Below, one piece after another: positions 19,045 through 19,275 of a stretch of 64,000 nucleotides of DNA. The notes under the pieces were generated by a model. It did no database searches. It saw only the letters and a program-made list of their open reading frames with translations, and had not been told where the DNA came from. Source of the DNA: Shigella phage sb1. The first letter of the stretch is position 1. Every line of letters begins with the position of its first letter. The position numbers were made by a program, and so were the translations under genes. The stretch lies in sequence record PQ666539, one strand, 5' to 3'.

Positions 19045-19275
19045 ATGTTACTAGAATTTAAACAATTTCTTTATTAAGCTTCTATTGATGAATTTATGGG
19101 TAAAATTGCCTCTTGTCAAACGATAGAAGGTCTAGAAGAACTTGAAGCTTATTATAAGAAAAGAGTTAAAGAAACTGAATTAAAAGATACTGATGACATC
19201 TCAGTCAGAGATGCTTTGGCAGGAAAAAGAGCTGAATTAGAAGATTCAGACGATGAAGTAGAAGAAAGCTTTTAA
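19045..19275 (+). CDS. uvsW.1: UvsW.1, interrupted by in-frame TAA at 19075-19077
   Basis: MLLEFKQFLY(stop)ASIDEFMGKIAS...; span is 76 codons, the T4 UvsW.1 length. Confidence 0.65.

Follow-up and report, generated by a model that had tools for sequence, protein, structure and literature searches.

The uvsW.1 gene of Shigella phage sb1 raises a simple question: what does a stop codon at codon 11 of a reading frame that goes on to 76 codons mean? The window, by which we mean the whole stretch of 64,000 nucleotides that was analysed, carries the full uvsW.1 frame on the plus strand (19045-19275, 76 codons and a stop), and a sequence-only reading had pointed to an in-frame TAA at 19075-19077. 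Direct reading of the letters gave exactly this. The start codon ATG (19045-19047) is followed by TTA CTA GAA TTT AAA CAA TTT CTT TAT and then by the TAA, downstream of which the same frame continues with GCT TCT ATT GAT GAA TTT ATG GGT and ends at a TAA at 19273-19275. The translation is MLLEFKQFLY*ASIDEFMGKIASCQT..., and both the peptide and the length of the frame agreed with what had been proposed. A Shine-Dalgarno-like GGAG is found 5 nt upstream of the ATG (19036-19039, plus strand).

The assignment of the frame to uvsW.1 was also borne out. With Glu11 restored, the frame matched T4 UvsW.1 (PDB 2JPN) over residues 1-76 with E=1e-43, and 75 of the 76 residues were identical, the remaining difference being I27 for L27. 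T4 UvsW.1 is the NMR-solved protein 2JPN (Kerr et al. 2007, J Biol Chem 282:34392, PMID 17878153). All of the 74 UvsW.1 homologs found in the databases carried the family PF11637. The check suggested beforehand was alignment to T4 UvsW.1, and in this alignment residue 11 of the T4 protein was Glu. An alignment of 75 sequences showed that Glu11 was conserved in 90% or more of them within a Y10-E11-A12 motif, and that six positions among residues 1-17 were nearly invariant (F5, Y10, E11, A12, I14, and F17). The position of the gene is that of the family as well, since it lies directly 3′ of uvsW and is convergent with uvsY.-2, and the order uvsW, uvsW.1, uvsY.-2 is common to sb3, RB51, UGKSEcP2, and ime09. 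So by similarity over the full length of about 76 residues (with Glu11 restored) and by position the gene belongs to PF11637, while the uninterrupted frame of 75-77 codons that the family has is broken here at codon 11. The gene is recognisable, yet judged from its letters as written it would be unable to encode the family protein. In all other respects this is an ordinary, well-conserved T4-type gene, and there is nothing new about the gene itself.

The surroundings of the gene are also those of its relatives. Upstream, the uvsW helicase gene (17508-19019, plus strand, 503 aa) has an open frame with 97.2% identity to sb3 UvsW over its full length, and it contains several missense changes of the class described below. 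Between uvsW and uvsW.1 there is a hairpin, AAGGGC-UUCG-GCCCUU (19018-19033, plus strand, -9.3 kcal/mol), which is identical in sb3, ESh32, and RB51. Downstream, the convergent neighbour uvsY.-2 (19331-19498, minus strand, 55 aa) has 100% identity to that of sb3, and the hairpin GGCCC...GGGCC between the two convergent genes (19285-19307, -12.6 kcal/mol, z=-2.75) sits at the place of a conserved bidirectional terminator known from the literature (PMC1524935).

The codon at this position was GAA in all 16 aligned relatives, which means that one substitution, G>T at 19075, made the stop, and the proposed origin of the stop from GAA was thereby confirmed. In an alignment of 301 bases with sb3 and ESh32, the window differed by this G>T alone. 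When an exact 61-mer around the TAA was compared with a collection of 50,697 phage records by megablast, none of the 498 matching records carried it, and an exact 36-mer including the TAA had no match in IMG/VR. A 60-mer 200 nt upstream, which contains four natural private variants, had no match in viral, metagenome, and genome collections. In the list of open reading frames, uvsW.1 appeared only as a 59-aa remnant that starts at Met18, and there was no record with exactly this product. In all 10 contigs that encode an identical neighbour UvsY.-1, UvsW.1 was intact with 76-77 aa. The window itself belongs to Tequatrovirus. No public record was identical to it, and the closest reached 97.0% over 20 kb, although around uvsW.1 several phages were nearly identical. 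Thus, the TAA at codon 11 is beyond chance when it is set against natural variation. However, it is not beyond chance when it is set against the background of G:C>T:A changes in the window itself. So the stop and its GAA to TAA origin stand, but the implication that this is a noteworthy nonsense mutation of one particular gene is not supported, as 30 further stops were found in the same window and the class to which it belongs behaves as unselected noise.

These stops were found by comparing every ORF of T4 and sb3 with the window by tblastn, and then by restricting the comparison to the annotated sb3 genes. In total, 31 distinct in-frame stops were present in the 64-kb window across 22 genes, all of them uninterrupted in T4 and sb3, with two each in gp17, gp22, gp27, alc, rnlA, and nrdA and four in gp34. 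G:C>T:A transversions accounted for 30 of the 31. The ancestral codons were GAA (to TAA, 18 cases), GGA (to TGA, 4), TCA (to TAA, 4), GAG (to TAG, 3), TAC (to TAA, 1), and TTA (to TAA, 1), so that the stops in use were TAA in 24 cases, TGA in 4, and TAG in 3. Natural nonsense mutations, and those induced by classical mutagens, come mostly from transitions (at CAA, CAG, CGA, or TGG), and not one of the 31 stops had arisen by such a route.

On the plus strand, stops were found in gp16 (codon 153, GAA>TAA, 1858-1860), gp17 (codon 366, GGA>TGA, 2975-2977, and codon 528, GAA>TAA, 3461-3463), the tail sheath gene gp18 (codon 128, GAA>TAA, 4125-4127), and gp22 (codon 25, TCA>TAA, 10042-10044, and codon 115, GAA>TAA, 10312-10314). 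Further along the same strand, stops were present in gp51 (codon 102, GAA>TAA, 21609-21611), gp27 (codon 194, GGA>TGA, 22634-22636, and codon 341, GAA>TAA, 23075-23077), gp29 (codon 65, GGA>TGA, 23897-23899), gp48 (codon 67, TAC>TAA, 25684-25686), gp34 (TCA>TAA at 56717-56719 and GAA>TAA at 56786-56788, 57647-57649, and 59156-59158), gp35 (codon 209, GAA>TAA, 60109-60111), and gp36 (codon 190, TCA>TAA, 61230-61232). On the minus strand, they were present in uvsY (codon 8, GAA>TAA, 20141-20143), alt.-3 (codon 93, TCA>TAA, 27586-27588), a gene for an alt-like ADP-ribosyltransferase (codon 178, GAG>TAG, 29449-29451), cd.2 (codon 22, GAA>TAA, 39687-39689), pseT.3 (codon 29, GAA>TAA, 43017-43019), alc (codon 135, GAG>TAG, 43196-43198, and codon 73, GAG>TAG, 43382-43384), rnlA (codon 183, GAA>TAA, 44238-44240, and codon 132, GGA>TGA, 44391-44393), nrdA (codons 124 and 125, where GAA GAA has become the tandem pair TAA TAA, 48397-48402), and gp32, which encodes the ssDNA-binding protein (codon 9, GAA>TAA, 53210-53212). 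All of these, like the stop in uvsW.1, belong to the G:C>T:A overlay analysed below. The only stop of another class was in the major capsid protein gene gp23 (codon 274, TTA>TAA by T>A, 11617-11619, plus strand), which may represent a minor second error component. Direct translation confirmed the stops at gp23 codon 274 and gp32 codon 9.

To measure the background, a substitution was counted as private when the window differed at a site where five relatives (T4, sb3, UGKSEcP2, ime09, and Killian) agreed, and each of the five relatives was put through the identical procedure as a control. Among 734 private substitutions in the window, 276 were C>A or G>T (37.6%), while the pooled controls had 6.7% (range 5.8-8.3%), which corresponds to an excess of about 243 changes (Fisher p=5e-87). 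In the local 8 kb, where 14-16 relatives could be compared, 33 of the 51 substitutions that were still private were G:C>T:A. The coding effect of this class was 80.3% missense, 11.6% nonsense, and 8.1% synonymous, and the neutral expectation, in which every coding G:C site is mutated alike, was 79.6, 11.6, and 8.8%, respectively. The distribution over the three codon positions was likewise 44/35.5/20.5% against an expected 44.5/33/22%. About 208 changes of the class were missense. The other substitution classes, by comparison, resemble the usual divergence shaped by purifying selection; in T>C, for example, 166-167 private changes were synonymous and 20-21 were missense. These data show that the overlay exists, that it is specific to one class and does not differ statistically from neutral, and that it has put stops into many indispensable genes.

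The overlay was found all along the 64 kb. The two strands were balanced (135 G>T and 141 C>A as read on the plus strand), there were no runs of one strand type in the window (z=-0.72), and no context effect was detected among 16 trinucleotides (chi-square p=0.13). Private frameshifts or indels were not found in the window, as all genes aligned over their full length in a single frame; the 1-nt gaps reported by blastn were compensating pairs in divergent patches or lay at the edges of matched segments. Placement was moderately clustered, with P=0.004 for the maximum per 120 nt under uniform placement. The clearest example is in uvsW, where the 114 nt at 18052-18165 contain seven G:C>T:A changes and the vicinity has no private substitution of any other kind; in the UvsW translation they are seen as residue differences from the T4 sequence (L, E, I, N, N, K, and T). 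The window-wide rate was 1.43% per callable G:C site. With 72 G:C sites, 17 of which could yield a stop by G:C>T:A, uvsW.1 was expected to receive 1.03 hits of the overlay and it had received 1, and the chance of at least one stop in the gene was 22%. No separate or gene-specific event is therefore needed for it. As a side observation, the missense share among private C>T changes was 44/121 (36%), and in the five controls it was 21-31%; a minor G:C>A:T component free of selection, similar to deamination, may be present, but this is suggestive at most.

We therefore read the TAA in uvsW.1 as one hit of a window-wide, unselected overlay of G:C>T:A changes, similar to oxidative damage, on an ordinary Tequatrovirus genome, and we give this reading a probability of about 0.85. 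According to this model, about 240 extra G:C>T:A transversions, at about 1.2-1.4% of G:C positions, would have been added to the genome without selective filtering. A polymerase that pairs A opposite oxidised guanine (8-oxoG) would produce exactly this class, so the overlay bears the signature of oxidative template damage or of an equivalent process. Three origins can be imagined for it: an artefact of sample or library handling that entered at very low or single-molecule coverage, a real but dead molecule of damaged DNA, or a change made to the sequence afterwards. In practice, the verdict is the same for each of them. Stops in gp23, gp18, gp17, gp32, gp34, and others would leave no progeny, so we infer that no replicating phage lineage has the sequence as it stands here, and the living phage presumably has GAA (Glu11) at this position and an intact UvsW.1 of 76 aa. 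The TAA is thus best read as neither a pseudogene mark nor a site of recoding or readthrough. Some findings do not fit the simplest form of this explanation: a uniform process does not predict the moderate clustering (seven hits in 114 nt), and one stop, TTA>TAA in gp23, is of another class.

The reading closest to the original observation is a gene-specific nonsense mutation in a viable phage, either as a knockout of uvsW.1 or with a 59-aa, N-truncated protein made by reinitiation at Met18. In T4 rIIB and in lacI, ribosomes are well known to restart a short distance past a nonsense codon, an in-frame ATG is indeed present at 19096, 18 nt past the TAA (the remnant ORF would run from 19096 to 19275 on the plus strand), and the remainder of uvsW.1 is identical to that of sb3. 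No function has been assigned to the gene (PMC1524935), and growth is not expected to depend on it. However, the G>T at 19075 belongs to the very class that made 30 other stops, including those in indispensable genes, the overlay by itself predicts the 1.03 hits given above, and the stop is shared with none of the phage records or aligned relatives. The ATG at 19096 has no Shine-Dalgarno sequence, as neither GGAG nor GAGG occurs in the 18 nt before it, and the fold around the TAA was no better than shuffled sequences (z=0.07). Loss of residues 1-17 would also remove all six of the nearly invariant positions. Met18 is a conserved internal residue of UvsW.1 and no known alternative start, none of the 74 homologs retrieved starts at this position, and judged from the letters neither a ribosome-binding site nor start use in relatives would favour initiation there. 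Some short homologs (P0055, P0070, P0072, P0073, and P0074) were considered as natural truncated forms and rejected, because they were fragments, internal deletions, or frameshifted calls. The window does resemble the classical T4 amber and ochre conditional-lethal mutants in that one base turns a sense codon into a stop in a T4-type gene. Such a strain has a single nonsense mutation, or a few of them, and is grown on a suppressor host, whereas the window has 31 stops of three kinds in 22 genes over 64 kb together with the same-class missense changes. A knockout or reinitiation in uvsW.1 is very unlikely; it is unnecessary and has no support. Programmed recoding, in which a suppressor tRNA or an alternative code makes in-frame stops into sense codons, would account for many stops in genes that need to be expressed, and such stops in structural and replication genes are what recoded phages with TAG or TGA reassignment and phage suppressor tRNAs show on the surface. 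But here all three stop codons occur in-frame, TAA replaces Glu, Ser, Leu, and Tyr, TGA replaces Gly, and TAG replaces Glu, while the same TAA, TGA, and TAG still end genes where the genes of the relatives end. Unlike recoded phages, the window has no single reassigned codon, no consistent amino acid, and no conservation in relatives, as all stops are private to it. ARAGORN found no tRNA gene in the 64 kb, which is a partial test as the T4 tRNA cluster would fall outside the window, and the fold at the TAA gave no sign of a stimulatory RNA structure. The missense changes accompany the stops at neutral proportions. The many-to-many mapping of stops to amino acids effectively refutes recoding, and we consider its probability negligible.

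The overlay could also be real in a physical sense. Sequencing of a single molecule or at very low depth, as in a metagenome, might have caught a phage genome whose guanines had been heavily oxidised in vivo or in the environment and which had been copied with A opposite 8-oxoG; the TAA would then be physically present, though in no replicating lineage. The spectrum, which is G:C>T:A only, symmetric between strands, neutral in coding effect, and without indels, is compatible with this, and the moderate clustering could reflect local differences in exposure. On the other hand, a single molecule with about 1.2% of all its G:C sites changed would bear a very heavy load, public collections yielded no comparable contig, and from the letters such a molecule looks the same as a laboratory artefact or a later alteration. 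So we regard an oxidised dead molecule as unlikely. A special form of it, in which phage DNA was oxidised inside the cell, for example when a host destroys phage genomes through guanine oxidation, and was then copied once and sequenced, is highly improbable; if it were true, the 31 stops would be scars of G>T hypermutation on phage DNA, which is not known as an outcome of defence. The preferred reading, an overlay on the sequence of an ordinary phage, can be compared with known 8-oxoG artefacts of sequencing libraries. The published C>A/G>T artefacts of oxidative damage have a low allele fraction and a characteristic behaviour with read orientation (Costello et al. 2013, PMC3616734). The window resembles this published type in that its excess is confined to C>A/G>T, shows no purifying selection, and affects both strands, and it differs in that the final sequence itself contains the changes, which affect about 1.2% of G:C sites and show no trinucleotide preference. 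Artefacts of this type normally enter a consensus only if the coverage is extremely low. Miscalling by nanopore or at modified bases (hydroxymethylcytosine) was also considered, and it was judged unlikely because there was no trinucleotide context and there were no private frameshifting indels. Strand-coordinated damage, which should appear as runs of G>T and C>A, was rejected on the run analysis given above. Costello et al. reportedly found in 2013 that the artefact favoured the CCG context. Such a preference was not seen in the window, where the rate at CCG was 1.27% and the overall rate was 1.43% per callable G:C site.

The stop in uvsW.1 is thus a reflection of a damaged or error-laden sequence and not of the biology of uvsW.1, and the practical value of the finding is in quality control. 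Any in-frame stop, truncation, odd substitution, or apparent pseudogene in this window should be presumed to come from the G:C>T:A overlay, and such findings should not be read gene by gene. Other findings of in-frame stops or truncated genes from the window probably have the overlay as their common cause. A public assembly, if it is the source of the sequence, should carry a flag, as automated annotation of it would break up or shorten 22 or more genes, among them those for the major capsid protein, the tail sheath, the terminase, and gp32.

Some minor observations were made around uvsW.1. An old uvsW of 587 aa has been split into uvsW and uvsW.1, and both related phages and the resequencing cited in the same paper show two genes and not one fused uvsW (PMC1524935). 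The T4 RefSeq entry NC_000866.4 still annotates the fused CDS of 587 aa (112677-114440), and a misc_feature in it notes sequence discrepancies. A NUMOD3 homing endonuclease of 230 aa lies between uvsW and uvsW.1 in Killian (L012, 19942-20634) and in L014 and L021 (4733-5425 in both), and segE lies upstream of uvsW in T4, L015, L016, L019, and L022; the sb1 window has neither of the two insertions. The UvsW.1 of phage vB_EcoM_IME339 (P0001) has 96 aa and contains a stretch of about 20 residues twice in tandem, with CQTLEGLEELEAYYKKRVK repeated, and this is either a natural length variant or an assembly artefact in its record. In the region between inh and uvsW of sb1, positions 17481-17482 carry two adjacent private substitutions, G>T and then A>C.
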